Assembly: GCA_013115125.1 (NCBI GenBank)
Contig: JABANN010000035.1
Location: forward strand, 1-64,000
DNA: 64,000 bases
Source: Perkinsus olseni
Lineage: Eukaryota
Direction: 5' to 3'
The notes below the pieces were generated by a model that worked only from the letters and a program-made list of their open reading frames with translations, was not told the origin of the DNA and ran no database searches. Every line of letters starts with the position of its first letter. Positions within the stretch are counted from its first letter, which is position 1. Positions 4,576 to 61,387 of the stretch are shown here, one piece after another. Position numbers and translations under genes: made by a program.

Positions 4576-7500
4576 TCAACCAGCCACCGGCCTATCAGAG
4601 GCATTGGCGTCACCTGAATCGTACGTGACGGGAATACTCTCCTCCTCATCCTCGATGGTGACTACTGTTCCGTCGCCCCTGTTCCTCGGCATCCCGCATG
4701 AGGTTCTTCCACCCTTGCCGCTCATCCGAGTCGTTCACATACACTCCCATGTACTCGCCTACAGTGATTCTAACAGCCCGACGGCGTCGTTCCAGCCTAC
4801 CAACTTCGGCAAACCCCACTATTTGACACACAGTTTGCACGATCCGTTTGATGCTGTCGTCAGAGGTGATAGCAGCACTACTCGGGCCGACGGCACCGCC
4901 CGGAGAGATATCACCCATGGAGCCGCTCTCGCTGAGTTCTCCTAAAATATGTGAAATGAAAAGGCGGAGCGATGCAGGTGATTACGAGAAGTATGGCGGG
5001 ATTCTACAAAGAGCTTGTGGATGTGGTCCTGGACGACCTGCAGTAGTCGGAAAGTTCGAACTTCGCAGTCTGAAACGGCAGAGGGCGGGAAGACCTAGAA
5101 GGAGGTGGCCGCTACCTTTTCGATGTTGGGGGACCAAATAATTCCTCAAGTTACGATTGAGTTTGTCGATACATCTGGTGATGAGGACGCGTAGCTGCTC
5201 CTTACGCTCGTCCTCTCTTGACAATTCTAACAGTGCCTGAAGGAATGACCCAGGTTCGATACCCGGCAGAGGTACTATTATCAGACAAACCTTGTAGACT
5301 ATGGTCGTCTCAGCGTTGCTCATGGCTGTGACCACCGCCATGTTCGCCCGTTGCCAGTCTGCGTAGTGTTTATGACGGAACTCTCGATCCGACAAAGACT
5401 GAGGTACCGACGCCTTATGAAATTACACTGACGATCCTCGTACCACAAGGAGCGCTCGCAGGAAGGTCTTGATGCTGGTTGACCTGAGGGTAGACAGCCT
5501 CCGTCGCACCCCACTCGAGAAGGGTCGCCTTACGCGCACTCATCCAGGGCTGTGGCTGATGTCGCCAAGAAATTCGCAAGATCAAGCACGCGCTCTGACA
5601 AGGAGTGAATTGGAGGGATCGAGTTGAGGCTGCCTTGCCCGCCTACCTGAGTCCTCCACGTCAGCGCCATGCCTCGCTATGAGGGTGAGCTCAACGGCAC
5701 ACGCCGCAGCAGTGAGGAAGGCGTCGCAATGGCGAAGCATTTGCTAATATCAGTCTGAGCGGGCGTCTGTGGACGCTGAGCTCACTCTAGGGTCCGACTC
5801 CCCCTGCTCCTTGGTTTTCTTAGACAACTCGGCGATCGACCCGGTCCGCTCCGCGGCAGCAGCAGCGTCACCTGCGGTAAGGTATCGGAGCAGCTACCAA
5901 GGAGCAGCCCTGACCTCCTCTGAGGAGGGCCTCGCAGACCGAGGTCAACTCCTCCGCTGGAGTGGCGGAAGGGAGGGACCAATCACTACCTACAGAGATG
6001 GTCACGAGGGGACGGGGAGTGGGGGGTCTCACCACCAGATACTCGTCCCTGATGAGTCGGAGGATACTCCACCGAGACCCCCGGCACCCTCAGACTGGAG
6101 CTGTCCATCATCGAACAGGCCTCCATCGAGGACGATGCCACAGAGTACTGCTGAGGGCCACGACGACTACCCCAACATGTAGCCGGTAGGGGCCTACTTC
6201 GATAGGCAGCCCGGAGGTGCTCGACTCAGCAGAAAGGCAGGTTGACATCTTCACTGGTGAGCTCTCTCGTTGCTCTCCCTCAGTGGTTGCTGCCGGTACC
6301 GGTGCCTGAGCAACCACGATCTAGCCTAAGGCCTTGCAGCGGGGTTCACTGCCTCCCGCATAGAAGGCGGGGGCAGCCCTCTAGCCTTCATCGTCCCCTC
6401 CGGCTGCGGCTGCGGCTGCGGCTGCGGCTGCGGCTGCTTTGGTAGTCTCCCCTGAGTGGTGTTATGGGGAGGGGATACTACAGTAGAGGTAACCAGCCTG
6501 GCAGGAGCCTCCGAGGACGGCGGTGGGGCTGGCAGGGCCGCCGCTGACTGCATGGGGGCTGAGGAGGCGTCGAGCGTCTTCCTCTCCCTCGCGAGTACTG
6601 CTATTACCTCCAACCCGCGTGAGGGCCCTCCGGTGCCCAGCGACAACCCTCGCTATCCCAGTCGGGGCGGGCATCCGCCTCCCTCCGGTGGGCGCTTGGA
6701 TGCGTGAGAGGCTACTGCTGTTGGTGTCATCATTGATAGAGCCTGAGAATGGACGCCACACCGTGGTCAGACTGAATGCACCGCAAAATTGCTTGATCAT
6801 CGCCTATTAACTTATCATCTTCTATACTTCATGTTCATGCATCCCATTTCTTATAAAATAGTGAATACCACAAATCCCGGTATTCATAAGTCCCTTATTA
6901 CAGTCCCCTCCGCCACCCTTCTCGAGCAGCCACCGATCGAACTTGCTGTTGAGGGCATTCCTATGGTCCTGCTTCAAAGGGAAACCTGCCGAGCATCCCT
7001 GCAGCACCTCGATGAGGGCTCCGTTACCAACCGGGCTCCATCAAGATTTCCCGCAGCCTAGGTATCGTCTCCTCAGTCCCCGTACTCCTCACCTGAGGAA
7101 TGATCTACGCGTCATCTCACTAAGGGCGACCTCACGAAGTGGCCGATGGCGGTCTGCGCGAACTCCCGGACAGCGGCGTCCTTGTCGTTGTACAAAGACA
7201 TAAGCACTCGGCCGACGTCCTTCACAGCCCGGCCAGTGGTTACCGTACCTGCATGCCACCCAGGCCGATGACCCCAACGTCATAGAGGACTAACCTTGAT
7301 GCTGAGTGAGGACTCCGATGAGCAGCTCCAGACAGTCTGCCACCGACTTCTTGTTTTTGCTAGTTTGTATGCAATTGATGAGCATCGGGACCATCGCCTT
7401 GGCTGAGACCAGCGCCTCTGAGTTTACCAAGTGCGTGGTGACCAGATTCTTGATGTGACCGCGGAAGGCCGCCATCTTGTGGCCCATCCTTTCTAGCAAT

Positions 7501-10500
7501 GCTGGTATGAGGACGTGGCACTCCCGTTCCGTGAGGGGCCTGTGGTGGTGACACTGGGGTGACAGCTATCTGGACAAACTTGCCTGGCGACTGTGGGCAG
7601 CAGGGCATCCAATAGGTCGAGCATGGACTTCCAAACCTGCGGGTTGTCCTTGCAGGTCGACAGGAGCCAAGTGCACCACTTGGCGAGGAGATCCAAGATC
7701 TGCAGGGAGGGGTTGAGGCGGGGCACCTCCTTCGAGGACGCACCTCATCAAGCTGGGGCTTCTCGCTATCATCGACCGTGCGATAGTAGTCCGCCCAGAA
7801 GTCGATTGCCGTGACGAACTCCGCAAAGGCCCCTCGAGGGGCGAACATCTTCTCTGCGAGAAGAGGGGCTATGCTGAGGAGAGGAAGTGGCAGACTTACG
7901 AAGGAGGAGGGCGCTGCAGGCGTCCTGCGTATTCACGTTTTGATTCCACTGATGATGCAACGCCGACACCAGAGCCTCGGGGATGTCCTCGACTGGCCTA
8001 GAATGGAGATGGCAACCATGAGGATGGATGATACCCCGCCCCGCTCGCCTACCACATAGAGTGCTTCTCATTGTGCTGCCTCCTCAACCGAGATCCAGCC
8101 GCGGGGACGAGCTCAACGCCTGATAGTTGGGTTGGGGGGTGAGGGGCCTGTAGCCTGCGGCCCTACCTAGAGCTGCACCCGTCTCGAGAGTACTGCTAGA
8201 AGAGGTCAGTGTGGCCTGCCTCAGTAGAGATCCGGTAGGCCTGACCATCAATGATAGTAACCACTCATCCACAGAACACTGACCTCTGTACAGAGCCACC
8301 AGCAGTAGCAGGGCCAGCAGCGCCAGGCCTGCCGTAAGGACGCTGCATACACACTGGAGCAGCTGTGCTCACCTCCCGCGGGGCCGAGATGTCGCCCTAG
8401 GTATGGCCGGCCGTGGTGCCATCATCCCTCGGCCAGAACCCTTACCACTGGCAGCAGCAGCAGTCTGAGCTCACTGGCGGATGTCTGACTGTCGGTAGCA
8501 AAGCACTGGACCTACTGGGGTCACAGCAGCAGGGGTAGGACCGCATGGGAGGGCGGCCGCTGGCGACTCCAATGGTGTTCGCCTCGCCACCTATAAAGGA
8601 AGTCCTGGGAGGCGCCGTCCCACAGCCGCTTACACCCGGTTTGGCGTTGACCCGATTGGTACTGCCTGGTGCTCGACTGCCGGGCAGTCCCCTCACACGG
8701 CGACTGGCGGTGGAATCCACGGAGATCTCTCGTACTCTCGACCCCTGGCCACTGGCTGGGGTGGAACCCGTTCGTAGAGTCGGCACGCCTGACCACACCC
8801 TCACCACAGTGCGGCGGAGAGGCCCTTCCTGTACTTGGTTTGGCAGCAGTCGTGGCGGCAGAGGACATAGGAGTGCTGACGACCTTCAGGCACTTCATCT
8901 TCTCCTCTATCGCCTTACGTCGGGCTGCCGTCATCGTATGCAGCTTGGCCAGTATCACGCCTTGAAGGCTGTCATCTCTAGTGAGTATCTAAGGCGAGCT
9001 TGATACGGCCAGGGGGTCGGGTACCCTGTTACCAGGTCCCCTAGGCTGCAGGCCGCCTCCCTGACAACCTTATCGGACTCATCGAGGCACGGCAAGAGCA
9101 CAGTCTCCGCCATCGGAAGGAGGAGATCCGCCGAGACGAATGGTAGAGCTCGAGAACATATGCCGAGAACCTTAAAGATATTTTACTAGGGTCGACCTTG
9201 GATGCGTCACCTCCCGCCTCCCTATCGGATTCTTATCGTTGATAACCCCGGCCAGGTCCTCGACGAGGCGACTGTCGAGCGACAGGGACTGGTACTTCAG
9301 CAGGGCATCGATGCAGCCAGTAGCCTGAGGTCATTTCGTGGCGCGGTGAACAATCCCTCCATCAACCACCGACCTGCCTAAGCACTCCCGCGTTCTTCTC
9401 CTTAACCTTAGTCAGCATCGTCAACAGCAGCATCCGGCTGTGGGGCATCTCCCCTCGGAGACCGTTAGCCACCGCGCAGAGAGCACTGAGACACAGGCCC
9501 TCCTCAGACCCACTCCAGGGCAGGCCCTACCTGCAGGCCTCCGTCGCTACTGGTATGTTCTGGTCCAGCTTGACCACCTTCATCAGGCACTGCACCACGC
9601 TGGGAGCTGACTCTCCTAATACCTGCGATAGGGGAGTAATGACGGACCCGACCAGACCGCAGCAGGAGGAGGAGGCTGACCATCTTCTTATGCTTCTTGG
9701 CGAGGGCGGTAAGCTGAGCAATCGCGTTCCTCTTGTCAATCCACTTGGCCGCGGAGGTAACCTGAGATACCTGAGAAGGCGTGCGCACGGCAAAGGTCGG
9801 GCTGCGACTACAAAGTCCTTCGGGAGCATCTTGAAGATATCTTGAGGTTGAAGCATGTCATAAGCAGCGTCCTCTGTCGATTGGGCTGCGACTGCAGGGT
9901 TAGCACCGCCGGCCGCACCTACGCGATTGATGATCAGCAGCGGAGCGAAGCAGCAGTATGACCAAGCCCACCTCCCGTCACTGTTGTCGCGCCGTACGCG
10001 AATCTCGTTGCTGCTTCTGAGACGAACCATCGATAAGCGTCGAGGCCGGGACGCTCGGTAGCACACTACTCGGCTGGCACTCTCCTAGCCTCTCGCATCG
10101 AGTCTTGAACTCCTTCATTTGGTTGTCCGCCAGACCGTTGCCACAGGCCTCCACGTCCGGCAGCCATTGATACAGCTCAACCAAAAGAGCGTATCTTTAG
10201 GACGCGTGAGAAGGTCGAGTGACCTATTCCGAGTCCCTCCTTCACCCCGCCTCTCTGACGCCCCTGTCCGTGCTCCCGCAGGCTTCGACTGCCAAGCCGA
10301 GGAACTCCTTCGGGGGCACCACCGTCATCTACGATACACTCTTGCAGAGTGTATCGAGAACCCCAGAGAACTCACACCAAACGCCTCGAGGAGACTAGTG
10401 AGGGCGGCGAGACATCCTGAGATCTGCTTATTGATGATACCCTTCGACGGCATCTTCTTTCCCTTGGGAGGATTCAGCAGACCCTTAGTATGCTCACAGA

Positions 10501-13694: not shown

Positions 13695-15472
13695 TCATAC
13701 GGCTCGGTTGGGGTCTGGTCTATCGGCCGGTAGTATAGCCGGCATTGCGGTGGTCGGTTGGCCAAGTTTACGGGTCTGGATCTCTTGCTGCAAGTCTTCG
13801 TATTCATCAGGGATCTAGTGAGGAAGGTATCTTACCTCGAACCATGCAAGATACGAAAGAGGTCACCTCTGACTGAGTTGGGCCGAACAAATACGTCAGT
13901 GTAATCTCATCCACTGTGTCCATCCTTCGATCATCCATGATATCCGGATCGATAAAAAAGAATACTGGCATGTCCACTTCCTAAACCGACCCCAAGGACC
14001 TCCACGACCGAGATGACTCCACCCGGCGCCTACCTCATGCGGCCCCAGCAGCTGCTCGTCGAAACAGAAGCACTGTATCTTATTAAAGTACAGCCCGGCC
14101 TCTAAGGGCAACATATGATACGTTGACATACCTGTACTGGAGATTGAACACGATCGCTGGAGCGCGAATGCCATACCGCTCACAACGATCAGCAAGAACC
14201 CGACTCAGCTACCCTCTATACGACTGTCAGAGTCGCGTCGTCGTCGTCGGCGGGCTTCGGGTGACGCGAAGCAGAAGAGTTACGATGAGAAATGCCGGTT
14301 GTGAGGGGCGGTACAGCGCTCCCCGAGCCGCTATCCTTACCTATGATGGGTTTGTTAGTCCTGTTTTTAGCTCGGAAGAACGCCAGAGCCGTCTCACCAG
14401 GGGTTACCTGAACTAGTGGTGGTGAGAGGAGCCTCGACAGTTGGCCGCCACCACGCATCCTCACGGCCTACGTGCAGTGTGAAGATATCACACTAGGCAT
14501 ATCCTAGGTCGATCATGGGCAAGGACGAAAAACCTCGGACGTACATAGACGGATCGCTGCTCCGGATAGAAATCCCACTTGAGCGTGCTCTGCACCGCCC
14601 CAGCAAAGGTAATCTTGATAATTCTGACAAGAAAAGACGTCATCCGCCGACCAAACCACAGCCGACCATAACCTCTTGCTAGCTTCCCCTTCCTTAGGCG
14701 GCGGTTTATACTCCTTATGTCCCACCGTCGCGAACTGAGACCGACACCTCCACGGCCGAGTTCGAAAGGTTGAGGCGACGTGGTAGATGGATACTCACAC
14801 CTCCCGTGGAACCTTGGCCCGTGGACTTGCAGTACATGTCGTACAATGGTACCGCTACGAAACACATGCCAAACATGAAAACCTGAACCAGTGGAATGGC
14901 GTCAAGGGTGGACGTAGGCGAGTGGGAATGGTTGTGAGCTTTGGCAAAGAGTAACCAGTGGGAATGGGAGAAGATACCGGAAAGTATTGAGTAATTTGGA
15001 GACACTTCGTAAGGCAGATAAGACGACTACTCCTCCCGGTCGAGGAGGAGACGAGGGCCATTGTAGTAGGTCATGAGGGCAGTATGAGGCGAGCCACAGC
15101 AGCAGCAGCAGCAGCTCACGCCAGATGACAGCCAAAGGAAAGACGTGTTGACACTTCTCGTCCGCTTATCGGTCTCCTTTTTAACCTGATGATTTACCTT
15201 GCCCTGATTATTCCTGTCCGACGATTAGACGCCCACCTTGCCGTAGAGCCAGCTGCCACTCCCACCATCTGGGGCGTGCTTCCGCCACCGCCCTGAACCG
15301 TGTATCCGTGAAGCAGCCGTTGGAGCCTCCGTTGCGAAGGCTCTTCCCAAATGGCGTATCTTAACTCCACCGAGCTCGCACAAATACGGGAGCCCCACCT
15401 CACGGTTACCAAATGCCTCTTCTCTTCTGAAAAGCTGGACGCCCTCCACCGAAGCGACTGAAGAGGCCTCAT
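13695..15472 (-). CDS. COX11: Cytochrome c oxidase copper chaperone Cox11
   Basis: FGMCFVAVPLYDMYCKSTGQG, LKWDFYPEQ, VTPGETALAFFRAKN, STYHMLPLEAGLYFNKIQCFCFDEQLLGPHEEVDMPVFFFIDP (CFCF copper motif); Arg-rich N-terminal transit-like peptide. Confidence 0.95.
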
Positions 15473-15955
15473 AGTTCAACCAAATCTACGGAAGGTGTGG
15501 TATTGCACGCATGCACACACCCGCCGTGAATTGAACTTGACGCAACAACATACCCTGACTTGATAAGGCCTCTCGAGAAAGTTGAACATCGTCGACATTA
15601 CGCGGAGACTAACATCACGACACCGCTTATAAAAAGTTCATCGTCGTCTTTCGTATCATCATTATTATTATCATCGCCACCACGCAAATGGAGTCAATTT
15701 TTTCATCATCCCTTAGAGGAGAGGGAGTCCCTCAAGAGACTCTCACAGCAACACCTGTTGCCACGGTCGGACGATACTACAAGACTACTGCTTATCAAGA
15801 CCAGACCAGCAGTCACCCCAAAAAGGGAAGGGGGCGACGTAGCCTGATTTTTTACTAGAATTAAGGACAGAATCGGGGAGGCTTGGAAAACCCGAGTGAC
15901 CTCGAGGTATGTGAGAATGATAAGATTAGAAGAAAAAAGAATAATAATATGGATC

Positions 15956-16141
15956 CTATTCTCTACTACTGCTATGACCGCGCGCCACGAAAATACGCAC
16001 GATAGGGCAACAGAGGGGCTGTCCAGTGACCGATGTCGAGGACGGCGGAGTAGAGAACCGCACACGTCGTAATCTCGAAGGAACGGACCTATAGAAGCCG
16101 TTTGTTAGACCAGAACAAGCGATAAGGACTACAAAAAGCAC
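15956..16141 (-). CDS. Possible last exon of a small RVxF-motif protein (RRVRF)
   Basis: ttctatAG acceptor then RSVPSRLRRVRFSTPP; upstream exons not resolved. Confidence 0.25.
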   Translation of the reverse strand: MLFVVLIACSGLTNGFYRSVPSRLRRVRFSTPPSSTSVTGQPLCCPIVRIFVARGHSSSRE

Positions 16142-17267
16142 AGAGCAAGCAGCAGCGAGCTTCGAAGCCGCACTGCTGCTGCTTAACAGATGAACAGATG
16201 ATGATGACTATTAATACTACTACTAATAATAATAACGTATCTTGGACCGTGGCCACCACACTCATACCGACGAATTGGCACGACGCGGATCGGGTTAAAG
16301 CCGGTCCGCGTCGATACCGCACCGAAGGACTATCAATCGTGTAAATTTGATATTGTTATGAAAGGATAATATATTACTGAAGAGGTAGAGGCAGTAAAAG
16401 ATGTTGCTGATGATGTCGTCGATAAGGCCTGTCTCGCGGTAGGGGCCGATCGCCCCTCGAGAGCCATCAACGACCACAATGTAACAACCCTGTTCGAGGA
16501 GGGCACCAGAGCGATGATCATAAGCTCTTCTACCACTGGCTGCTGAGAGCAGCCCGAATCTGCTTTTGAGAGTGATCACTCCGGGCTTCGCTCCGTCGAG
16601 CAATAACGAGAAAATGGAACAGAATGAAGACCAGTACTCCGAAGGTTGGAGCAACAGCGGTACCGAAAGAAGGGTCTCTCGGTGAACCATGCTGCTGCTC
16701 GGTAAAACAACAAAAATAGTAACCACGACGCCACAGTCCTCGTCCTCGAATGTCGACAAGCTGTTAATCCACATTTATCTACCGTGGGCTGCTAAGAATA
16801 GGTTCCCAGTAGGCCCTTCATTGTGTAGAGAGAGCCTCTAAATCGGTATCATCTTCATCATCATCAACAACAACATCACCATGAGCATTCTTCTAGCCGC
16901 ATGCTCGCCACGATGTCGTCGTTGTGCTTGGGGACTCCGATTATGGACTGCTGGACGGGTAACTACCCCAAGGGGGGCAAAGGAGATACAACAAAGGTAG
17001 ACAGCAGCAGAGGCAGAGCAGCAGCTCGCCCAGGAGGGCGCCAAGTAAACAGCATAGTATAGAGACTACTACTACGATTGGGCAATACTACACTGTAGGA
17101 TGGAGTAGCCGCACGACCACTGCTGAGTATGATGATAAGAGCAGAGAGCTGGAGTGTACCAGCATGGTGCAATGCACCAGACGTCCTTCAAAGCCTTTGT
17201 GCCGTCCTCGTCGATCGTCATACACGAGACAACGACGACGACATCCAAGCGTCGGCAAGTGCTACTA

Positions 17268-17798
17268 TTAGAACGCATAAACTCCTCCTCTAGCGACAGC
17301 CTTGGTAGCTGTTTGTTCTGCCAACTTTTCCGCTTGTTTTTCGTCAGGAGCACCATCATAGTCCGCAGTTCTGCCCAGAGAGACGGAGATCAGTCGATCG
17401 TCGTCAAAGGTGTACTCGACTTGCTGTGGACGGAAATGGACACTCGCTCCGCGCGGACGGGTATCCTCGTCGTAGTCCTCGTAGATATCACCGTATATTG
17501 ACGCGACTGTGGAACATAGCGAGACTGATGACGGTGAGTGCTTCTCGCACGACGCTAGTGACTGTGGTGAATCTGATAGAAAAACCGTAAAAACCAGGGG
17601 AGGCACCCTTGACCCAGGCAGCAACTCACCAACGGTGAGCTCGTTCTGACTAAGCATACTATCAGCCTTCGGAGTTTCCTTCTTCAAAATGCTCCTCCTC
17701 GAGGCGACTGGCTTACTGCCTGTACGCCCTCGGGTCATCCTATAACTACTTGGGCGGACCGGTTTGTCCGGGACTGCCGTACGACTGAAAAAAGACAT
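17268..17798 (-). CDS. Small disordered protein with SILK and RVxF-like motifs (putative PP1 interactor)
   Basis: ATG at 17798; RRSILKK then RGASVHFRPQQVEYTFDDD. Confidence 0.65.
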   Translation of the reverse strand: MSFFSRTAVPDKPVRPSSYRMTRGRTGSKPVASRRSILKKETPKADSMLSQNELTVGELLPGSRVPPLVFTVFLSDSPQSLASCEKHSPSSVSLCSTVASIYGDIYEDYDEDTRPRGASVHFRPQQVEYTFDDDRLISVSLGRTADYDGAPDEKQAEKLAEQTATKAVARGGVYAF

Positions 17799-18378
17799 GA
17801 TTAGCGACAAAGCAGGGAAGGAGTGGTAGCAGCAGAAGGCGACCGTCCTACCATCCTCGCATAGCCGGCTTGAAGCACCCAAATACACGAGAAAGCATAA
17901 ATATAAAAGTAGTATTAAAATAAGCAAGCTAACATGGACGATGAACAGTACCACACTCAGCGGACCAGAGATCATCGAGAAGCCGCCAAGGCTGAGAGGG
18001 GTTGTCGTTAAATACACAGTAGCTGAAGAGAAAAGAAGCAAAGGGGGGAAGAAGAGAATCCAATACGGTCTGTAATAGCATCCGCTAACGACACAAGCAG
18101 GGAGACAGGATGGACACAACGAGGACCCTAGGATATGATGAAGCCAACAACACTACACGGAGGAGGCGAAGAGGTAGCGAGGTGGAGTTATAATCCGTAG
18201 GATTCAGCAAAGGGGAATGGCGACAACAAAGACGGTTAATAATGGTATAAACCAGAGAAAGGTCATTGCGGTCGTTGGTAGGCTCATCATCATCAGAACA
18301 ACAAAACCAACGACCCTGAATGGTATAATCGTAGCAGCTGGCGGCGGCGGCGCGAGTAAGCGCTCTTATACGGCAAGT

Positions 18379-18996
18379 TCACGAACCATTGACGTGGTGA
18401 CTGCCCAGGGAGGCGATGAGACCCTTCGGGGCCCCTTGAGCGCTCGGCAACCGATGGAAGTGAGGACGATCTACCAGGACCTCAGTATGGCTTCTTAACC
18501 GCTGGCGAACCTCTTCGGGAGGGCTCTCGCTCCCGTAAGAACAGCAGGATACCGATTCCTGGAAGTGGACCAGCGGGGCGGCCTGCATCGATTGGCTCCG
18601 TGGCTTGCTTTCCAACGCTCGATCAGCCTTCCGTATACTAGTGTCATCCGCTGATGGAAAGTGAGCTCGCCCCTCTGAACAACGAGACACATACACAACA
18701 CCGGTACTGCTGCTGCTGCGGGCCTTACTCCACCGGAGTCGCCGATTGACCTCCTCCCTGGTATGCTCATGACCCTGGGCGTCCTTAGCTCGCTCCGCTC
18801 CTATTCCCTTCGGGCCGAACAAAATGTCGAGGCACCCCGGAGTGTAGCCGCGCCTAGTTTCCCCTTCCGGATGCTGTCCACTACTAGACGAAGGTTCATT
18901 CTTAGCGCCAGCTCCGGACGTCTCTTGAATCGGAGCAACGGTTGGAGCAGTAGCTGCCTCCTGGGGATTTGGTGATGGTGCGGTAGCAGATCTCAT
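18379..18996 (-). CDS. Small disordered protein with VxF-x8-Y motif (putative PP1 interactor)
   Basis: 205-aa ORF containing APLVHFQESVSCCSYGSESPP. Confidence 0.55.
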   Translation of the reverse strand: MRSATAPSPNPQEAATAPTVAPIQETSGAGAKNEPSSSSGQHPEGETRRGYTPGCLDILFGPKGIGAERAKDAQGHEHTREEVNRRLRWSKARSSSSTGVVYVSRCSEGRAHFPSADDTSIRKADRALESKPRSQSMQAAPLVHFQESVSCCSYGSESPPEEVRQRLRSHTEVLVDRPHFHRLPSAQGAPKGLIASLGSHHVNGS

Positions 18997-27700: not shown

Positions 27701-28786
27701 GCATCTCGAACGATGAGCGAATCACCCGGCATCAGAGAAACGAGGCACTTGCTGGAATCGACAAGCTGAAGAAGACCGCCTTGACGGTAGGACCTTCCGG
27801 TCAGGTAGGGGTGACAGCTGGCAGTGCCCATCCTCAGGACCTGACGGCCAAGGTAGCAGAGCTGGAAGAGGAGTTGGCTAGGAGGGACAGGAGAGAGAGG
27901 GAGCTGCTGGAGCGGGTTGAAGGCAGGGAGACTGAGATCGAGAAGATGGCTGATAGTGTCAGAAGTCAGTTGGTTGTGGCGGCTGCTTCCGCGTGGGGGT
28001 AAGGAGAATGGAATCTTTGCTGCGCGGCAGATACGATGACCGAGAGGGAGTCTCAGTTGAATGAGAACTGGGAGGGCAAAGTTGAGGATTTGGAAAGGCA
28101 GGTGGAGCAGCTCGTTAGAGAAAAGAAGGAGTTGGAGGATGCTCTGGCTAATACTGAGGAGAGGGCTAAGGAGGCTCATGATGGACAGGTGACCGCCATG
28201 CAGATGACCCGGGTTCGATTCTCGGGAGCACCATTTTATAGGTTGACTTCGAATCTACGAAGAACAACGAGATCGACATGCTGACTGAGACTCTGATCGA
28301 CAAGACCGGGTATTTCTCGAGGCCCCCCACCTCAGTCTCTTGCCAGTTTCAACTTCAGAGAGATCGCGCGCCTGAACGAGGAGTTGGAGAAGGCCCAAGC
28401 AGACCTCGACAACGCTGAGGCTGCCGCAAAGGAAGCCGAGCTCGCCGTCTTCACAGCCACTCGGGACATGGCCGCTGATCATGACAAGAACATCACCGAG
28501 TGGAGAGACAGAGTGGAGCAGTTGCAGTCGGAGAACGCGGAGGTGCAGGCGAGGCTTCGAGAGGAGGTGGAGGGCCGGGAGAAGGCTATTAGGGTGGTGT
28601 ATGAGGAGAAGGCAGCAGCAACAGAGGTAGGAGGGGGGCGTGGGGAGGTGAGGCGATTGGGAGGGCGTTCAGGCGGCACATGAGGCCATGACGAAGTTGA
28701 GGGAAGAAATCAAGGAGCTGAAGGACAGAGTCGCCAGAGGCGGAGGACCACGGTCCAAGCGCAAATGCTTGCCGTTCTGCCGATAA
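24769..28786 (+). CDS. Guanylate-binding protein (GBP/atlastin-type large GTPase) with N-terminal Tudor/SH3-like module and long C-terminal coiled coil
   Basis: VVNSEALDLL, VVTVVGMYRSGKSYLLNRL (G1), ACTKGIWMY (G2), IFLDCEGLG (G3), MALLMSSVFIYNS, FLWVLRDF (G4); E/K/R-rich heptads; ends KRKCLPFCR*. Confidence 0.92.
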
Positions 28787-34729: not shown

Positions 34730-34819
34730 AGTGCAACTGAAGGTCCCCGGTTCGATCCCAACACTCGTCACTTCGATACAACAGTAACGACCCCTTGAAA
34801 ATGAATGATATTATATAAG

Positions 34820-45195: not shown

Positions 45196-46589
<1,394 letters not shown>

Positions 46590-47456: not shown

Positions 47457-48511
47457 ATGGGAGTGTGCTCATCATCAGCCGCTTCCGAGCACCCTAAACG
47501 TCATGCTGGTGACTCTCCAGAATTCGAGGCTGCCCTAAAGGAGATGGTCAGCCAGTCAAAGGTCTTCACCAGTGTCGTCGTCTACGCACGAGGAGAACTC
47601 GACCTTCACTTCGCCCCCTCCTGTGAGCCCTCTGCACCTTGCCACTCGAACTCGGTCCGCAGGTGACTGTAAGGACCTTCCCACCCGACTGGACTCTGTG
47701 CCAGAGGCTGGTAAATCGCCATCACTGTGATCTCCCTGTCGGCGATGCCGTCCTAAGGTATCATCTTCAAGGGCTCCAACTCGAACCACTTGCTTGAGAT
47801 GACTGACGATGCTGGGCTAGTGTATCAGAGGACCGATACATATCGGTAGCAAGCCACAGTCGGACTCAAATCAAGGATCGAGAGGAGCCCAGGTTCTCGG
47901 TACCCCGGTTCCGTGCAGTATGCACTCTCAAGGGCCGCATCGAACCCAGTGACGTCCTCCAGTATTTATCGGGGAATCTCAAGATGAAAGTATTTACGCC
48001 CGACGGAAGCTTGAGGTGAGTGTGGGCTGAGGGCCTTCTTGTCGCAGAAAGCTCATAGCCCTCTATCGCTCCCAGCTTGTTTCACATATTCAACAGCAGG
48101 TCTCCTATCAGGTATCATGATTTCGCAGTCTCTTTCTTCGATCGACTTCGACTACATTCGGACCCGAACGTTACGCGATTAGTGGTGCATGCTAACGAAA
48201 AGAAGCCGTCTAATGATCGTCCAGTGAAGATCCCGCCGTCTCCGCTGTGAATCGTATGCGTCCTTGAGTTCTCTCGCCGTACTGGTGACATCGCAGACTG
48301 TGATTCGCAGTGGGTCGTTCTCAGGACAGTGGGACGACACGGCGAGCGTGCGCGCGTGTGCATGATCAACTGTTCTCTTAGACGCTTCTCTGAGGATGGT
48401 TACTGGCAGCTCCTACTGTCTCCGAAGTATGTGGTATCACCCGAACTCGACAGGAGTGATACTGATACAAGGCTAATGTTCAATGAATACAGCAGAAACA
48501 AATACTACTAG
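47457..48511 (+). CDS. Hypothetical multi-exon protein with N-terminal MGxCxS acylation-like motif
   Basis: MGVCSSSAASEHPK...; GT-AG interrupted frames; last exon RFSEDGYWQLLLSPKYVV...NKYY*. Confidence 0.55.
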
Positions 48512-51413: not shown

Positions 51414-54400
51414 TCATATGCTGGACGTGGATGATGATGATGATGAATTATTCAATTTCCATACACGGAATGAGCGGTCGTGAGAAACTGTGACGAACAT
51501 CCCCTCAGCCGACGGGCAAGAAGTCACACCGGCGATGGGCCCCTGACCATCGGAGACACTGTCACTCGCGGTACAGGCAACAGACTCACATTGGAATGCC
51601 GAGACGCGTACTCCCGCTGCAGCGAGGTGCCACGAAGGCTCCACACCTTCACTATGCCATCACGACCAGTTGACACAAGTCGGGAGTCTCGAGGGCCCTG
51701 GCAAGGACACTTATCAGCAGACTTGGTGATGATCCAACTCACCCGGACGAGGCTCAGGGCGGTGATCCAATCGTTGTGAGCTTGAACGCTGGCTAGGCAC
51801 TGTCGACTGCTCATCCGCATACTCACGTCCTGTTGGCCAGATATCGATGCTGGTACCTGGGCTTTGCACGATACCTTTTTCGATGGAGCATGATTGAGAT
51901 CGTCACCTCCCAAAGTTTGATGAATTTATCGCGGGAGCCGCTCACGAAATGAGACGGCCCCCACGGTTGTAGCGAGGAAACGGCGTCGAAGTGTGGGGGT
52001 TGGAAACTGAGCACTGGAAGGAGGAGACCTTCGGTCAGCTCGCCTACACTTGGCCCGTCGGAGTCCTAGTCGGGTCGGTCCACATGCGTATCTGATCAGC
52101 TCGGGCTATGATCACCGAGCGACCCCTGCTGCTGCTGCTGCTGCTGCTGCTGCTTCTAACTGTCTTCTCTCTTCCCCCAGCGAAGAGCTTAGAGTCCTCA
52201 GATGCGGCCACGGCGAAGAGGTCCATGTGCCCACTGGAAAGCTTCACGGGCTGCGGCACAGCCTCCGATGCCCTAACAAGCACACCTTCACCGTCGAACG
52301 TCGTCAACCCTGACCTACGTGGACTCCCGCTTGGTGCCCCGATCGAGCTCCTCAAAGCTTCGTAAATCATACAACTTGAGTCCTGTGGCGGCGATGGCCA
52401 CATGACCAGCTCCCCCGCTAGGCCTGCTCGAGAGTGTCAGCTACTGCGACAAGGGCACGCAGGAGATGACAACACTACACGAGAGCGACTTGGCTGATGT
52501 CCTTGTTCTCTCCCGTCACAACCGTGGCGACGCAGCAGCTGTGGGAAGGACATCCTGTAGTAAACCGATTTAATTCGCAGACAGGATGGGGTACCGCACT
52601 TTTGTCAATTATCTTAACATTATTGGCCACGGCTGCAGCCACGAGGTTCCCGTCAACAGCACACATACTCCTCACAATAACGTTCTGTCCTCCAGCTGGT
52701 ATGGGGACCGATTTAATCTGCCCAAGTGATGAGGTCCATTGCCCTCTTCGACGCAGTTTACTTGTGTTGGTCGGGCGCCAAGATCCCAAACCCGGATGTT
52801 CCCCATGCTTCCCGTCCACAGATGGAGGCTCGGCCCTTCAGTAAGGCAGCAGCTCGTGAGGAAGTAGTCGTGGGCGTCTCGTTCTCGATGAGTGCAACAC
52901 CAACTACAACACCCCAGCCGGGTTCGAATCCCACGGACTGTATATTTTCAATCGACTTTCCCCCCCCCTACGGCGCATTGGCATCATCAGCTCCCCAGAG
53001 CACCTCTCGGTCACCCAAACGAAGGTCTGCCACCGAGCCTGCGCACCAACAACTTCTCAAATCCCTCTACGCTGGTCCGCACCTTTCCGACTGAACTCGA
53101 ATGGTCTATCCACATTCTTCCGATCCCCTTCGTTCTCATTCTCGGTACTCCACTTACGGATGGGCTGCGAGCCTACAGACAGCAGATCGATCACCTTCCC
53201 GAGACGGAGCAGCACCTACGCTTGTAGTCCGCGGACTCTGTCGTTCGAGTTACTTGAGCTAGCCGTGCCCTCTTAGTCGCCTTCAGTGACCCTGCACGTT
53301 CAACCTACGCAAATCGCCTTGCGGGTTGTCTCCGCCACGGGCGACTCACCGATGATGACGAATGGCCTCGTTCTCTCTGAAGAAGTTCTCTCTCTTCTTC
53401 TGCCGTCATCAACTTCCGTCTCAGACTGACATTGATGTCCTCGAGCTCTTCGATGCGGTCCTGCAGCGCCTTGATGTGCTCCGATCGTGTGCGTGACAAC
53501 AGGGCTTCCTGGTACACTGTCTGGGACCTGGTGGCAGACCTAGCTGCTGGAGAGCAGAGCTGCTGCCTGCTAGCCCCCTACTGGAGTTCGAGAACCTCCT
53601 GACTCTCGATGTCATCCACTAGAGAATGCCTCATCCCCTTCCTTCTAAGGGGCATAAACGAAAGGCTGTCGTTGATGCTTGGAGACACGGGTGAGGTTGT
53701 GAAGGCCTGATCGGAACCAGTCTGCAGACGAGTGTGGTATCCAAGGTCGAAGCTGCCATGCCACGGACAGCTAAGATATCGACTGGGCCGAGCCTACCTG
53801 CGGTGCGTCTTCACCAACAGGAGGGGTGTCTTTATTCATGATTGGTATCTCCGAGACCTGAGAGCCCCACTGCCCCTCCGGCAACCAAAGACCCCACCTC
53901 CGTCCGTCCAGGCGTCAATTGCCTTCCCATCTCCCGACACGGTCCGCTGGCTGGAGCTGGTGAGCCTTCTCGGGAGACATCAGACGACCGTACTCCACTA
54001 CGACGACGATGGGTGACTGAGAATAGAAGGCCGCTCCCAGATTGCTACATACAGGCTGAGGAACGACGCAGATTGCAAGCAGCCAGGAAACAGATGGAAA
54101 GACCCACACAATCAACCATGTGCTTACGAGGGGTCGAGGCCTCCACCAGTTGCTTAGAAATCATTGCAAGGTCGGATATCTTTCTCTTTGAGGTGAGCTC
54201 GGATACCCTCCTGGAGAAGTCGTTCCTCAGGAGAGCCATCTTAGAGGCCTGCTCGGCTAGCTGGGATTCCTTCCTGGCGCATTGGTCGCGCAACTCCGTC
54301 AGACGGCTCTCGAGGCTTCCGATCTGCTTGCGGGCTGACAAGGAGCTTTGCCGCCACCAGAATTTCGTGGCGCGCGACGTGAGTGACCATCAATGTACAT

Positions 54401-57400
54401 CACCACAACAACAGGCCTTTAACATAGTCGAGCAAGGGAGCCGGTTATCAATTCTGTCTTCTGGTTATCAATGTGCGGGCCATGCGAGAATAATCAGTAA
54501 AGTTATACGGACCAGAGAGTCGTGAAGGAGGGCCGCAGCCTCACCAGCAAGGAGCTCCTCCCAGAAGACTCTCGCCATGGCGTCAAGGTTAGAGGAAACC
54601 ACCGACAGCACCTACACAAAGTCCTCTAGCGGAGCGAAGCACGAAACTATCCACCTCCTTCAGGCTATCCCCCGGCTGAGTTATTCGATTGGAAGGGTCA
54701 GTGAGCTGAGGTGGGATAGTTGTTCCTCATCGCCGACTAGGTGAGACGGCAAGACCCACCTCGATGTACCGCTTCTGCATCACCGACCATTGAGCCGACA
54801 TCGAGTCAAGATTCTCCTGGGCGTCCAAGAGCTCAGCCTAATGAGTCAGCAGCTGGGCAATTTCGTGGCGCGCGACATACATGGTATCGTTCCCGCGATT
54901 TCCTTCTGTTCTTCAACCCCTCAGTGTCGTCCAGCTTGGCCTCGAGCTCAAGAATGTATCGTCTACTCCAACATCGTTCCTCTCAGACAGCTTCGCTCCG
55001 CCCTCGTTGGCCTACCTCTGCGAATCCAGCCTTTTTTCAAGGTCATCCAACTCCTCCGACAGCTTCTCCGCCTGCCACGCCGCAGCAGGAGCAGCCGATA
55101 GCTACGCGCTTCACCGTCGCTGCCAACCTACTATCTCAGCGGTGCCATCGCGAGCCATCTGCCGGTCTATCATGTCGCGAAGCCAGATCTTGATACTGCT
55201 CGGCTCAGTTCCCGGCACCCCATCCCTCCGTGCTCGAGATCGCTGCTGCTTGGCCCTCGCAGCAGGGCCGAGGGATTTCTTCCGAGAGTCGACTCCTGAG
55301 CCGTTGGAAGGCGGATCAGATCGCCATTGCAGGCCCTTATACCGCAAATCCACCAAATCACGCGATGCCGAGATTCTGGCCCCAAACCACTACTATCTAC
55401 AGCGGTTCAATCTCAGGTAAGCTACTGAGAAGATCAATATTGATGCCCAGACTTCGAAGGAGCGTGGGACTATAGAGAAGTCTTACGACCACCCAGGTTC
55501 ATGCATGGCCACCGTGAGTGTCATCCGTGCCCGGGGGTTCCTCCGAAAGCGTTCACCGTCAAAGGAAGGGAATCACCTCTGCTACCATGACCACGCTCAA
55601 CGAGGACCTACGTCGTTTTTGAGCCTCCTTCAGTGCGTTCAGTTGCTTCAACAGCGTCTCGTTGCGGACCGTGAGTGTAGCAAGAGTCTTCTTGGTAGAC
55701 TGATCGGCAATAACCCATCCTCCCCAGCCGCTGCTGGACCAAAACCACGTCTGCGTCCTTTCTAGCCTCCAACGTCTTCTTCGCCTGGACTCTCTTCAAC
55801 TGATTTATCACTCTGTCACGATCTTGGAGAATTTTTCGGTGTGCCTGAGAGCAAGCAAATCACACCAACCCAACCTCGCAGCACCCGCAGGGGAACGTTG
55901 CGCCGATTCAGCTGATTCAGACACGCATGAAGCGAAAGCAAAGGTTTCCCTCTAGTGTGGGAGAGGGTTTGGATGAGGAATGGAATGACCAGTCGTCACC
56001 CCCTCAATGGAGCAGCAAACACAAACCATACCGACCGACCTCGTCGTGCTCCTTCCTCTGTCGTTGTATACGGACCTTCTCCGCCTTGGCCACCGACAGC
56101 TCCTTCTCCAGCCGGGCAACCTTGCATCAGGTTCCTGCCTCACCGTCACAGCGCCCTCTGAGCCTACCTCCTGACCGCAGCGGTCCTTCGCCTTCTGTAT
56201 GCTGCTCAGCTCTCGACGCAGCTGCTGCATCTCCTTCTGCTGTTGATCCAACAGCCTCTGGTTGTCCCTCTGCCTGAGAAGATTACACTCGACGAACCTC
56301 AGAAAAACTTCGCTCCGCTGTCACTTTCTTTCAAGCAACTCCGTCATTTTCCTGTCACTCTTCTTGGCGTTAATCTGGGCAGCCAATTCCTAAATTCGGC
56401 CAATCGTGAGCGGAGCGAAGCAGTTCCCCCCGACCTCCTTCTCCTTGTTAGCCTTGGCCACCATATCCTCATACATCCTAATTTTCTCAAGATACGCCTG
56501 CTGCATGGCCGCGTGGGAGTCGTGCTCACTACGCAGGCCCTGCAAGTGCCGCTCCTGCGCCGCGATACTGAAAGGAGGAAACCAGCTGCAGTCGTACACG
56601 TGTCGCCCGGCAGACGAAGAACCGAAGAACGGAGTTCGGTCACGATACCTATTTTTGAGCCCATCGTCATCGTCATGGCCCTGGCTGTCCTCGGCACCCT
56701 TGTCCATCCAACTGCTGGTAGCGTGCAACAATGCTTCTACGGCCCCCGCCAGGTCCTCGGCCTCCCCCTGACAGAAGTAACAGCGGCAGCTCTGGAGAGA
56801 CCATCACCACCAATAACCGGAGCAAGCCCCAGACCTCTCAGCATGTATTTCGTGGCGCGCAGTTCGAAGCTCGTACTCCGAACCAAGGACGAAGCCAGAA
56901 GCACTGTACCCACCTCTCCGCCCTCCTCCTGCTGCTGCTCGGCCACTGCGCCGATGAGGTCCGAGAGATTACTCTCATCGAGCTCCAAGTGCTGAGTAAT
57001 TCTATAACCCCACCCCCAGGAAGGATGGTCCCACCTTTGCCAGTCGATCGGTAGTGTCTTGCCCAGCACTGCTAGTGGACGCCGTGTCACCAGCGGTCGA
57101 GGAGGTGTCTAGGCCTGTCTCCTCCGGTGGAGCCTGAGATCATGGCCGAGGACTATGTGAACCTCCGCTTCCCAGATTTTCTAGTCAATAGTTTCACTGC
57201 TATCACTAGACATCAATAAGGCAAACTTAAAACCCTAAGACCGACAGAGCTCGCCTCGAGCCCAAAGTTTAACGCGATGGCCGAGTACTCCGCGAGCCAC
57301 CGCTTCCCGGAGAGCTGAGGTCACTAGGAGAGCATAAAGGAACACTATACTAGATATCAATATGACAGCCGGGCTGTCACAGCCCTACCCTCGAATCCAC

Positions 57401-60400
57401 GGTCGAACGCGCGGCACCCTCCTCCCGTACCTCACTATCGCCTCCTCCTCGGAACCTGCTGATCTCACCATCCAAGTGCTTGTTCCGAGCCCACACCTTC
57501 GCCATCACCTCACGATACTCGGCCAGTTGGGCCTCGAGTGACGTGCACCTGCAATCCAGCGCCGCCCAACCCATGAAGGGCGAGCGGGCTTTGCCGCACT
57601 CACCGCTCCATCAGACGCTTGTTGTTCGCATCGGTACGCTGCGTCGTCGAGGACTTAGCCTCATCAATACAGCCCGGGTGACTGGACGGTGTCTCAAAGC
57701 CTTCCTCGGCCGGATCGATGCCCCGTTCGACGCACAGGCCATGAAGGCGAGCGTATCTTGCAAAGCGTGCGGACTCTTGTTGTAATACCCAGTGCCATGG
57801 TGCGCTTCATCGAAAAGCGAACTGCAAATCCAACTTCAGCTGATTAGCATGTCCTTATGATATTAGGAAGTTGCGGTACTCTCGAAAGGGCGTCACACGC
57901 AACTAATACTGGAAGTAGCAGAGGAAGGTCTCATTCTTAACGGCTTTCTCTTCGATCACCGTGTCGTCATAGAATAGTTTTTCCCACCGACGGATGAGCA
58001 TTCGCACTCGAGGGAGGAATCCTCATGTCTCCCTAGCCGGCCGCGCCCAACTTACTTCCGCTGCCATTGCTCAAGTTCAATCCTAATACCCTCAGCACCC
58101 TCACCAGGACCCAAGCCCATGAACCGAAGCTTCTCCTCCGTTAAATCTCGAATCTGCACTTATCGACTGGACTAGCCCTTCCACCTCTCATCCTCTTACC
58201 TGCTGCCTCAACTCCATCACCAACTTCTTCGTAGGGTCCGTGTTAACCACTGGACGATTGGTGATGCACCGAGCACGACTGGCGTATCTTAGGTTGACCC
58301 CAGTAAGATACGGAACTGCACTCAAGCAGCTGACTTGATCGTGTTGTAGGTCTCGGCAAAGTCCGCTGCTGCCGGAGACACGCAGGCGATCATCACCGTA
58401 CGAGAGTTCCCGCCGAGCGAATCCTGATTGGTCCAAAAGACGAGTCCGTTCCATTAGCGAAGTGGCTTGCCAAGACGACAACACCTTCAAGTGAACCACA
58501 CGGGAGCCTAATTTCCTGGTCGTGCGAGAAGTGGCAGCAGCCGATAATCAATCGCGGTTGAGACACACCGCAGCCGGACGACGCATCAGTCAGTAGAGAT
58601 AGTCAACCAACATCGTTGAACCAAACAAATGGGAAAACATCGAATCCCATGTACATAGCGAGGACAGCTTTCCCGCGCGCCACGAAATTGCTGATCGACT
58701 CAGATAACCCTTACCTGTAATATTCTAGTCAATTTACTGTCCCTATAGGGTATCTAAAGTGCTAAGCCATAGTAAGGTGTTCTCCAAACCACTTGCCCTA
58801 CGTGAGACTGACCCGACGCGGCTGAGCCTCCTGTCGAGTCGGTCGCGTTGAATGCTGCCCCGGCAGTGGTGGTGCTGCTGCTGCCCCCCTCCATAGCCGA
58901 GCTCAAGGCGCAGATAACGTTACCCAGAGCCAACAGACCGCTGAAAAAGTGGAGGGGAAGAGGGTATGTCACAGGTGATGGCAGTTTCTTATGAGACTAG
59001 TTTCGACCTAAGATTCCCTTCAGCTGCGATGGGGACGATAGTCGTAGGCCAAAATACCGCAAAAATGCAGGAATCGCTTAGAACCCCAAAAGGCCACCGA
59101 GAAGAACGCCTCATTGCTGATCTTGATATCGATAGCCCTGGACGTTCCCAACGCTATGAACAGCCACACGAACATCTCCATTCGGGCAAGGCATTCCCCT
59201 TGGTGATGTTGCGCCGCAAACTCCGCCCCCTCACCTGTTGATGTGTATCCCCTCCCTCATCCGGTTGCCAGTCGCCATTGTCCGCTTTATTCGCTCACTA
59301 CCGGCGAGGTCAACGAAATGGAACTTCGCCACCCGATACGAGCACTCCCCCGCAGGAGCGCCATCATCGCTGCCTGGGGGATCGGAGTGGGCTGAGGGGA
59401 GAGCAACTCTGAAGGAAATCTCGGAGCTCCTGTGCCCCGGCTACTTGAGGACAAGGAGATCCACGTGACGATTTTTACAGAGATATGCTCCTCGCGGACT
59501 AGCTGTATTACTCCGTTCGAAAATGCAGCGAAGCTGCGTGAGGGATGGTCGGTAGCATTTTATGCTACTTTTACGTTGATAACGATTCTACGTTCAGATG
59601 TACTGTGATGATACTGCCGCAAATGGGTGGCCATCTCTATTAGAAATTGATACCTTCCCATTGAAGGCCGCCACCCTGCGAGCTGCACAACGACTGCTCC
59701 GAGTGATCCAACCGTCTTAAGTCTGTCCGCTTACTTCTAACAACCATGCCAATTGTGAAGATGGCATGGCTCCGAGACGATTGGCTGTTCATACCGGTGG
59801 AAGCCGTCCTAAAAGCAACCCCAGTAGCATGCAACCACATCACCCACTCGATCGCTTCCAGTGGTTGTCTTTAAACTTTAAAGGTCGAAAGTTCCATATT
59901 TTTCAATAGGAAAATTCGTGCTCTCTTCCTGTACTGAATTTTTAGCGTTTTCGGACTTTGAATTCTTCCGCTGCGAACGACTCGGGACGAAAAAAGTCCT
60001 ATCAGTTCCTTAAAGGTCCTATCCACAGCTTCCAAAATCCGCAAGACGCATTCGAACTCATCTACAAGGAGAGCAAAGCGCACGCCCTATAGCAGTGGCA
60101 TGGGCCTTCGATCTGGGGCCCTCCAAACAATAACGGCAAGTGTTGATGAGTTCAGGAGCAGTCCACTGAAGTCGCCTGCATGTTTTGCCGGTCCCCTTAC
60201 TGTCTAACTACAGAGCCCCGGTCGAGGCAAAGATGTAAGTCAGCTGCGCACTCCACTGGCTCTTCTGTACAGCCGATAACCTAAACAGCAATATGCTGGT
60301 ATGAAGAAGGTATATATCGATTATCGATTAATCGGGCGCGCGCGACTTACAATGATGTTCTTCGACGTTGGATCTTCTATGATACGAATCTTATCACTTG

Positions 60401-61387
60401 GAGCCACAGTCCGACTGATTCCACGTTTCCCACTGGTAAAGGCGCCATTGTTAGTCGACCGAGCTGCTGAAAGATACCACTCGGAAAATCTTCGCTGTGC
60501 GCATGATGTCCATCATGGAGTGACTTACATGAAGTTGGCTCCACAACAGCCGCGGAGGGATCGAGTAGGTCTCGAATTTCCTCGTTGTAAAGCTCGATAA
60601 AACTGAAGGGAAGAATGGTCGAAAACTGCAAGCGGGAGAAGTCCCAGCGCCCCTCGCCGATTTTACTGAGACCACAGGCTGACCATTTTTTCGATGTAAA
60701 AATCGCGGGAAATTTCGGAGAATTTACGATCGTTCAACTGACCTGCACGTGAGCTCGATCGTCTCATCAGGGTTGCCCTCTTCCACTCGTCGGCAAATCT
60801 CCGCGATGACCTGACGGAGGAGGTCCGACGATTAGTAGGCTCGAAGACGCACGCGAGGGATAAGACCGGAGTCCTGGGACACGTAGCTAGCGCTGCCCAT
60901 GGTGTAGGTCTTGCCAGAACCTGGGAAGAGGAGAATGGCAGATGCCGGGATCGAACCCGGGACCTTCACCTGTTTGGCCGTATGCAATTACCGTGCAGTT
61001 GTAGCCTGCGAAAAACTGGTTAACAAGGGGCTCGATAGAGGCAGTGTAGAGCGAACCCTGAAGAGAATGGGTCGCGTGCTCATCTTTATGGCCACCGAAA
61101 GGCACCTGGTCAGAGTCTTGATCGTAGACGCGATCGAAGGTGTAGGCCTTGCTGAGTGAGGGGATGCACACGGTCCTCTCCCCGTCCACTGTTATGCACG
61201 TCGAGGAGCCACCGCTCGCCAGAGTTTCGCTAGTGGTCAAGGGCCGAACTCGGATACAGACCTATCGAGGCTCACAGAGGATTACCCAACACGCCAGATT
61301 CGCTACATTGATATTCTGGGAAGATGATGATGACGACGAATTAGTTGAATCAATTGTTGAGGATGCAGCGCTGCCAGCCGTGGGCAT
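51414..61387 (-). CDS. Kinesin-4 (KIF21-like): motor, long coiled coil, C-terminal WD40 repeats
   Basis: [123 protein letters not shown] motifs [53 protein letters not shown]. Confidence 0.88.

Follow-up and report, generated by a model that had tools for sequence, protein, structure and literature searches.

Why do lone B-boxes, flanked as in the 3' end of a tRNA, recur in the tiny introns of a protist genome? The question arises from a single 64-kb window of Perkinsus olseni DNA (i.e., the whole stretch analyzed, to which all of our results refer), which is eukaryotic and densely broken up by very short GT..AG introns. A reading of the letters of this DNA (hereafter the sequence-only reading) had listed five noncoding sites (sites 1 to 5; Table 1) that share the register of a tRNA 3' end and had proposed that they belong to a genome-wide system of intronic sites for the factor TFIIIC. 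Judged by sequence similarity, these sites are tRNA-derived, have no working 5' half, and occur in both orientations; most likely, two are of a glycine type, two are of a Phe/Val/Pro type, and one is of uncertain type. All five lie in RNA that is spliced out (the intron of site 1 being a predicted one) or just upstream of a spliced-leader acceptor, and the tRNA-like sequence, here called a relic, itself supplies splice sites.

All five proposed sites are present, with the correction that the core of site 1 starts at 5250 and not at 5249. Exact copies of the 13-mer core CCNGGTTCGAWNC start at 5250, 28209, 34746, and 52918 on the plus strand and span 60948-60960 on the minus strand, and the 10-mer GGTTCGANNC, which corresponds to the consensus B-box, is exact at 5 of the 5 sites. 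When one mismatch was allowed, CCNGGTTCGAWNC had nine matches in the window versus 2.23 expected, a count that 0 of 100 shuffled sequences reached; only two of the one-mismatch matches are neither palindromic partners of a site nor part of the true tRNA gene described below. The excess of GGTTCGANNC was smaller (7 matches versus 2.59 expected; 3 of 100 shuffles reached 7), and its two further matches lie in the true tRNA-Ser gene and at 47937-47946 on the minus strand, under an unspliced RNA contig. The pattern GGTTCGAATCC, searched with up to two mismatches, had 19 matches versus about 16 expected according to our uniform-base arithmetic. The statement that T-stem pairing is broken at some sites while the B-box and a terminal pyrimidine-A persist holds. 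In the register of the sequence-only reading, the T stem has 4 of 5 pairs at site 1, 5 of 5 (one of them G-U) at site 2, 2 of 5 at site 3, 3 of 5 at site 4, and 3 of 5 (or 5 of 5 with a 6-nt loop) at site 5, while the core and, on direct reading, Y72-A73 are kept at all five. The acceptor strands differ even within pairs of related sites. The mixed orientation relative to the host gene was likewise borne out, with sites 2 and 5 in sense and sites 1, 3, and 4 in antisense.

How far the similarity to tRNAs extends was assessed with a panel of tRNA sequences. Metagenome contigs were scanned for the 22-mer common to sites 3 and 5, which yielded at least 120 loci; among the matches listed, the 22-mer lies inside a tRNA-Phe(GAA) gene in 103 of 120. 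ARAGORN found 922 distinct tRNAs in those loci, and the 896 of them with a length of 70 to 90 nt and a named isotype constituted the panel. The two ends of these tRNAs served as an internal control. The last 36 nt of the 896 tRNAs gave 48.1, 44.1, 44.1, 32.2, and 30.2 bits at sites 3, 5, 2, 1, and 4, respectively, while the first 36 nt gave nothing above 30.2 bits in the window save at the true tRNA gene. Similarity to tRNAs that continues past the B-box but lacks the 5' part (i.e., the mark of a 5'-truncated tRNA relic) was found at sites 1, 2, 3, and 5 and is borderline at site 4.

The individual alignments support these assignments to different degrees. The glycine-type sites are the best non-trivial pair among 73 introns of the window, with 25 nt in common and otherwise unrelated intron sequence. 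Site 2 contains 22 nt that are identical to a panel tRNA-Gly(CCC) (44.1 bits in BLAST; E = 8.8e-8 per query), and its alignment to tRNA-Gly has 28 of 30 identities over positions 34-64. Site 1 is identical to tRNA-Gly(CCC) of the panel at 25 of 29 aligned letters over positions 36-65 (local alignment score, 20; shuffle maximum, 15) and has 32.2 bits to tRNA-Gly(GCC) in BLAST. Site 3 is identical to tRNA-Phe at 29 of 34 letters, from position 40 to the discriminator A73 and including the acceptor strand. It has 22 of 23 bases in common with site 5, which had 44.1 bits with the full panel and whose local alignment is Phe-like with an indel. When every tRNA holding the 22-mer of sites 3 and 5 was removed (leave-out panel), both sites still had 38.2 bits, to tRNA-Val and tRNA-Pro, and site 5 matched tRNA-Pro at 19 of 19 positions; thus, the tRNA origin of these two sites stands, with an isotype that may be Phe, Val, or Pro. 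At site 4, the alignment score was 18 (shuffle maximum, 16), and its 30.2 bits in BLAST equal the background. A candidate sixth, degenerate copy (18 nt; 94% match to the 3' half of a tRNA-Leu) has 28.2 bits, which is also background.

As had been supposed, the sites are not working tRNA genes: over the window, ARAGORN and Rfam (at the gathering score) found only a tRNA-Ser gene and no tRNA gene at the five sites. With ARAGORN relaxed, sites 3 and 5 were reached only at a setting that called 44 'genes' in the 64 kb, and the Rfam search at site 2 gave only a weak match to the tRNA-like mascRNA (15.6 bits; E = 0.6). The A-box pattern was not in excess in the window (6 matches versus 3.61 expected; 16 of 100 shuffles reached 6), and direct reading revealed no complement of the acceptor strand upstream of the sites. 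The assertion that none of the sites has a 5' half is right for a working one, and the 5' halves of tRNAs have no comparable match; it needs qualification at site 2, which matches tRNA-Gly back to about position 34, and at site 3. There, a weak D-arm/A-box-like stretch occurs at 34697-34709, 37 nt upstream of the site and within the first codons of a minus strand gene. On account of this stretch, site 3 may be what is left of a complete tRNA gene, the antisense strand of which would now provide the acceptor, the start codon, and the N-terminus. Split or permuted tRNA genes are disfavored, given that no partner 5' halves were seen within the window. No site ends in CCA at positions 74-76, and a short T run follows sites 2 and 4; thus, the sites look like copies of genes or of primary transcripts rather than of mature tRNAs. 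An intron of 184 nt (62576-62759, minus strand) in the public gene model that also holds sites 4 and 5 encloses the window's only true tRNA gene, tRNA-Ser(AGA), in antisense, and the junction of this intron is exact in the corresponding protein.

Table 1. Positions (in the window) and strands of the five sites, of the introns or spacer that hold them, and of related features; model P0001 is the public kinesin-like protein described in the text
Feature	Position	Strand	Description
Site 1	5240..5274	+	tRNA-Gly-like relic: anticodon-stem 3' strand, variable loop, and T arm, to A73
Intron of site 1	5237..5290	-	Predicted, 54-nt GT..AG; site antisense; 3' splice site CCTTCAG adjoins relic
Site 2	28196..28233	+	tRNA-Gly-like relic, anticodon loop to A73, then TTTT
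Intron of site 2	28189..28241	+	53-nt GT..AG; site in sense; frame test and gene finder
Site 3	34737..34770	+	tRNA-Phe-like relic, positions 40-73
Spacer/outron of site 3	34737..34802	-	64-nt gap between two tandem minus strand genes; site antisense
Site 4	52918..52942	+	Perfect B-box with weakly tRNA-like 3' continuation (Leu/Ala-like)
Intron of site 4	52904..52971	-	68 nt; site antisense; junction string exact in P0001 (one of 58 mapped introns)
Site 5	60936..60968	-	Phe/Val/Pro-type relic, one base missing in T arm
Intron of site 5	60921..60969	-	49 nt; site in sense; splits kinesin P-loop (GQTG/SGKT); junction exact in P0001
Candidate sixth, degenerate copy	61406..61423	-	T-arm-like stretch ending at 3' splice site of 79-nt intron 61402-61480 (P0001 mapping)
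tRNA-Ser(AGA) gene	62625..62706	+	ARAGORN; Rfam, 59.1 bits
AATTTCGTGGCGCGCG, 16-nt motif	9334-9346, 15980-15992, 54363-54375, 54861-54873, 56848-56860, 58675-58687	both	6 copies, at most 1 mismatch
GCGGAGCGAAGC, 12-nt motif	4964, 9940, 16585, 19264, 54629, 54990, 56307, 56410	both	8 copies, at most 1 mismatch

Gene models came from a public protein, from mapped contigs, and from a gene finder of our own. The protein (P0001; 1,945 amino acids), named by its source as a kinesin-like protein of P. olseni, was found by a protein search with one exon; 99.7% of its residues lie within exact 12-mers of the window translation. Mapped back, it has 58 GT..AG introns (median, 47 nt among the 40 introns of up to 80 nt), which amount to 5,846 nt versus 5,850 nt of exon. 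A Pfam search with single exons of the window gave no useful match. The P0001 model joins a small GTPase, a kinesin motor, a coiled coil, and WD40 repeats in one protein and may be an over-merged annotation. Contigs from four public sequencing runs were mapped on 28100-48000, a stretch that covers sites 2 and 3 only. Runs X7 and X10 are not recorded as RNA and were treated as such because their contigs are spliced when mapped; their 14 listed joints in this stretch correspond to introns of 42 to 53 nt (12 introns), 101 nt, and 326 nt. The window represents a genome of the Perkinsus type, with introns of approximately 45 to 50 nt. Our gene finder is crude (182 to 339 introns depending on the penalty, with divergence at a laxer penalty) and was used only for a rough intron share, which came to 16 to 30% of the window. 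At that share, the probability of four or more of the five sites being intronic is 0.003 to 0.03. Given that introns make up half of the host gene, however, 'in introns' largely means 'not in coding sequence', and this is weaker evidence than it sounds.

The location of four sites in introns and of one in a spacer had been claimed from the letters, and it held to a degree that varies by site. The junctions of sites 4 and 5 are spelled exactly in P0001, so that both sites belong to one public gene model; for the intron of site 4 (52904-52971), our gene finder instead ended the gene at a TAG within its first GTAG. The intron of site 2 was upheld by the reading frame: its removal leaves a coiled-coil frame open, whereas read-through shifts the frame into a stop. 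Additionally, a DNA contig of X9, a diverged relative, covers 28100-29079 with only four gaps, which means that no 53-nt loss has occurred and that the relative keeps the intron of site 2. The intron of site 1 was called by our gene finder and is in frame without a stop; consequently, the open reading frame test is no proof in this case, and the intron is a predicted one. Its host protein found no match among proteins of 257-2000 residues and may be longer than 2000 residues.

The spacer of site 3 proved to be a 64-nt gap, and the spliced-leader acceptor at its end is made of relic sequence: a CT of the relic, read in reverse complement, gives the acceptor AG (34738-34737). The X7 and X10 RNA contigs end at, or leave the genome at, 34738, and the contig of the upstream gene ends at 34803. 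One X10 contig runs past 34738 with 11 letters that no other part of the window contains; in minus strand orientation and together with the genomic AG, these letters are the end of a spliced leader. A full-text literature search for this leader string with two more letters matched two papers only, both of them about spliced leaders of Perkinsus or Perkinsozoa.

Splice sites and relics share letters at several places. The Phe-type relic has TGAAGG at its left edge. At site 5, this stretch is the donor, the intron's 5' splice site GTGAAG being relic sequence, and sites 3 and 1 have its complement, CCTTCAG, as acceptor. The relics occupy most of their introns (49, 53, 54, and 68 nt). These introns are somewhat longer than the 12 RNA-supported short introns (42 to 53 nt; Mann-Whitney p = 0.004, or p = 0.03 with the introns of 101 and 326 nt included) and also longer than 37 other short annotated introns (Mann-Whitney p = 0.026). 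The idea that relic introns have unusually strong AG/GT junctions was dropped, as 22 of the 58 annotated introns follow an exonic AG and 15 of the 58 precede GT. Repeats at the junctions of relic introns are of the AG/GT type only and are common among annotated introns anyway.

The tRNA-like sites are not the only short sequences that recur in these introns. A comparison of the 73 introns, all against all, revealed two more short motif families (i.e., AATTTCGTGGCGCGCG and GCGGAGCGAAGC), which together with the tRNA-like family are the top common segments. Four copies of AATTTCGTGGCGCGCG lie in introns of the public model, one in a predicted intron, and one without an annotated or predicted gene; after the copy at 56848 comes a B-box that carries one change. 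The corresponding numbers for GCGGAGCGAAGC are four in annotated mini-introns, two in predicted introns, and two without an annotated or predicted gene. Both motifs have sharp edges and unrelated flanks. In the gene of P0001, the tRNA-like, AATTTCGTGGCGCGCG, and GCGGAGCGAAGC families have 3, 4, and 4 members in intron sequence and 0, 0, and 0 in exon sequence. Two copies of AATTTCGTGGCGCGCG align weakly to the variable arm and T arm of class II tRNAs and the others do not; among the 12 copies of the two motifs compared with tRNAs, only 2 scored above the shuffle maximum, and Rfam gave no match at AATTTCGTGGCGCGCG. In reverse complement, GCGGAGCGAAGC agrees with the B-box at sites 3 and 5 in 8 of 10 letters, and, in our reading, AATTTCGTGGCGCGCG and GCGGAGCGAAGC on one strand could pair at 8 of 10 positions. 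Whatever explains the B-box sites in the end should extend to these two families as well.

The explanation that we favor, with the balance standing about even, is that the sites are passive relics of dispersed, 5'-truncated copies of tRNA genes that survive only where they are spliced out. Each copy would comprise the 3' part of a tRNA gene (anticodon-stem 3' strand or variable loop, T arm, acceptor 3' strand, and A73, without CCA) and may have been dispersed as DNA or as cDNA of a primary transcript. In this gene-dense genome, such copies would last only at places from which splicing takes them out; a part of them might have created or reshaped the host mini-intron or acceptor, and TFIIIC binding to the intact B-boxes would be a possible by-product. 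The homology reaches far past the B-box, and no fewer than two tRNA types are involved. Tallied with the other points, tRNA-derived relics, which the sequence-only reading had offered as an alternative, fit better than its TFIIIC system. Several points weigh against them. No target-site duplication, poly(A) tail, or CCA end was recognized at the sites, and the Rfam tRNA model gave no partial match there, either over the whole window (E up to 10) or in slices of 131-141 nt around sites 2 and 3. The core is intact at all five sites, with no clear series of core-mutated copies and no further match to tRNA 3' halves above background; neutral decay should leave intermediates, so that the copies would have to be young or the core kept. 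The comparison with tRNAs puts site 4 at background, the isotypes rest on tRNAs from metagenome contigs that were fished with the 22-mer of sites 3 and 5 and not on the organism's own tRNAs, and one 64-kb window was studied.

The intact core is also an argument for function. The sites could be extra-TFIIIC (ETC)-like elements that arose from tRNA genes, with a B-box under selection for the organization of chromatin or transcription and with introns as free space, which we regard as possible if rather doubtful. Such a role would account for a core CCNGGTTCGAWNC that is perfect at five of five sites while the T stems pair at 2 to 5 of 5 positions and the acceptor strands differ within pairs, for there being only 2 one-mismatch matches besides palindromic partners and the true tRNA gene (2.23 of all kinds were expected), for the occurrence of both orientations, and for the lack of an A-box excess. 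However, the sites were found through their intact core, so that its conservation is partly an effect of ascertainment, and the sample is five; within pairs, the extent to which changes spare the invariant bases is not significant (p roughly 0.2-0.5 per copy by our own arithmetic). A TFIIIC site does not need tRNA homology 10-20 nt past the B-box on its 5' side, and the relics take up most of their introns and supply splice sites. Moreover, AATTTCGTGGCGCGCG and GCGGAGCGAAGC show the same sharp-edged intronic conservation without a consensus B-box. This last point might instead suggest a wider system of mini-intron motifs, acting at the DNA or RNA level through factors unconnected with RNA polymerase III (Pol III); the motifs might serve as binding sites, for instance, or let introns pair with one another. 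Such a system would be consistent with three families that are the top common segments, are confined to introns in the P0001 gene, and occur in both orientations, and with the possible pairing (8 of 10 positions) between AATTTCGTGGCGCGCG and GCGGAGCGAAGC. We consider it improbable, as the tRNA homology is specific to the B-box family and not clearly common to the other two, whose members may be relics of other repeats.

Very unlikely is a role of the sites in RNA, whether in the splicing of very short introns, by way of a branch point or hairpin, or as an intron-derived small RNA resembling a tRNA half. At the three antisense sites, direct reading places the relic's TCGAAC at 13-18 nt upstream of the acceptor, a plausible distance for a branch point, but the two sense and three antisense copies put different strands into the transcript, and folding is not unusually stable (z = +0.34, +0.6, +0.3, +1.07, and -1.32 versus shuffles for the five sites); this mixed orientation and these ordinary folding energies render the role unlikely. 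Additionally, no acceptor-stem partner exists, and the other 13 RNA-supported introns lack the exact core. Chance resemblance in short, GC-rich introns is harder still to believe. It would agree with the mild enrichment of the GGTTCGANNC 10-mer and with the background score of site 4, but not with a CCNGGTTCGAWNC 13-mer count that no shuffle attained, with the 22-nt identity between site 2 and tRNA-Gly, or with 5' halves that have nothing comparable.

Passive relics of this kind have partial counterparts in known systems. Like the ETC sites of yeasts and the isolated B-boxes of other eukaryotes, the sites are lone consensus B-boxes without a usable A-box or tRNA gene, are independent of orientation, and are possibly derived from tRNA genes; unlike them, they lie inside genes transcribed by RNA polymerase II, in introns of 49-68 nt, at approximately one per 13 kb, and with 10-20 nt of extra tRNA homology. 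Introner elements, known from Micromonas and Aureococcus, are similar in that the inserted sequence makes the intron, in either orientation, and brings or co-opts splice sites. In contrast to introners, the 73 introns include no near-identical copies of whole introns; only 22-27 nt are held in common, at least two tRNA types are involved, and no terminal inverted or direct repeats were recognized at the sites. Introner elements have also been the subject of a paper on Amoebophrya (PMC7789003). With tRNA-derived short interspersed elements (SINEs) and fragments of tRNA pseudogenes, the sites share the dispersal of tRNA-related sequence; retro-copies typically lack their 5' end. SINEs differ in having a tRNA 5' head, A and B boxes, and a tail, whereas the sites consist of the 3' part only, with no tail and nothing after A73 but a few T residues (sites 2 and 4). 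Within the genus, Kojima and Jurka (2013; PMC3706591) describe, for Perkinsus marinus, Dada DNA transposons of 4.7-11 kb that target tRNA genes and insert into them, and give gene counts of 116 for tRNA-Gly-GGA and 349 for tRNA-Leu-CTT; these elements illustrate that tRNA genes in that species are abundant, scattered, and interrupted by mobile DNA. We noticed no Dada sequence next to the relics, with no search aimed at Dada having been made. Literature searches on Perkinsus introners, tRNA-like introns, intronic ETC sites, tRNA-based intron gain, and SINE or tRNA repeats of Perkinsus returned nothing on tRNA-like sequence in Perkinsus introns, supplements and figures aside.

A bolder extension of the relic explanation, which we put forward as speculation and consider unlikely as it stands, is that Perkinsus genomes have been seeded throughout with 3'-tRNA cassettes (and perhaps with cassettes from other sources, such as those of the two extra motif families), which are tolerated in either orientation for their ready-made splice signals. 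This would be a new, tRNA-derived route to mini-introns and spliced-leader acceptors, and thousands of intact B-boxes might then form a dense network of intragenic TFIIIC sites. If true genome-wide, it would join the origin of spliceosomal introns and trans-splice acceptors in intron-dense protists with the role of B-boxes outside tRNA genes. Half-tRNA relics would be overlooked in the annotation of Perkinsus assemblies because they escape tRNA finders. For several Perkinsus species, genomes are publicly available, so that computation alone would suffice to check the central claims.

Other parts of the window had features of their own. Strong A-over-T skew (0.15-0.18) marks the region at 15000-24000, in which the gene finder gave only four short, doubtful models. 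Repeats at 32831-33065 and 41724-41832 are covered very deeply by each of the four runs, with joints in inverted orientation and numerous loose ends, and are probably multicopy mobile DNA; a loose end in the relative X9 at 33065 holds a B-box-like stretch. Finally, parts of 42044-44700 are skipped or replaced in the diverged relatives X8 and X9 (the joint from 42149 to 44701, and others), and this region looks like a strain-specific insertion or deletion.

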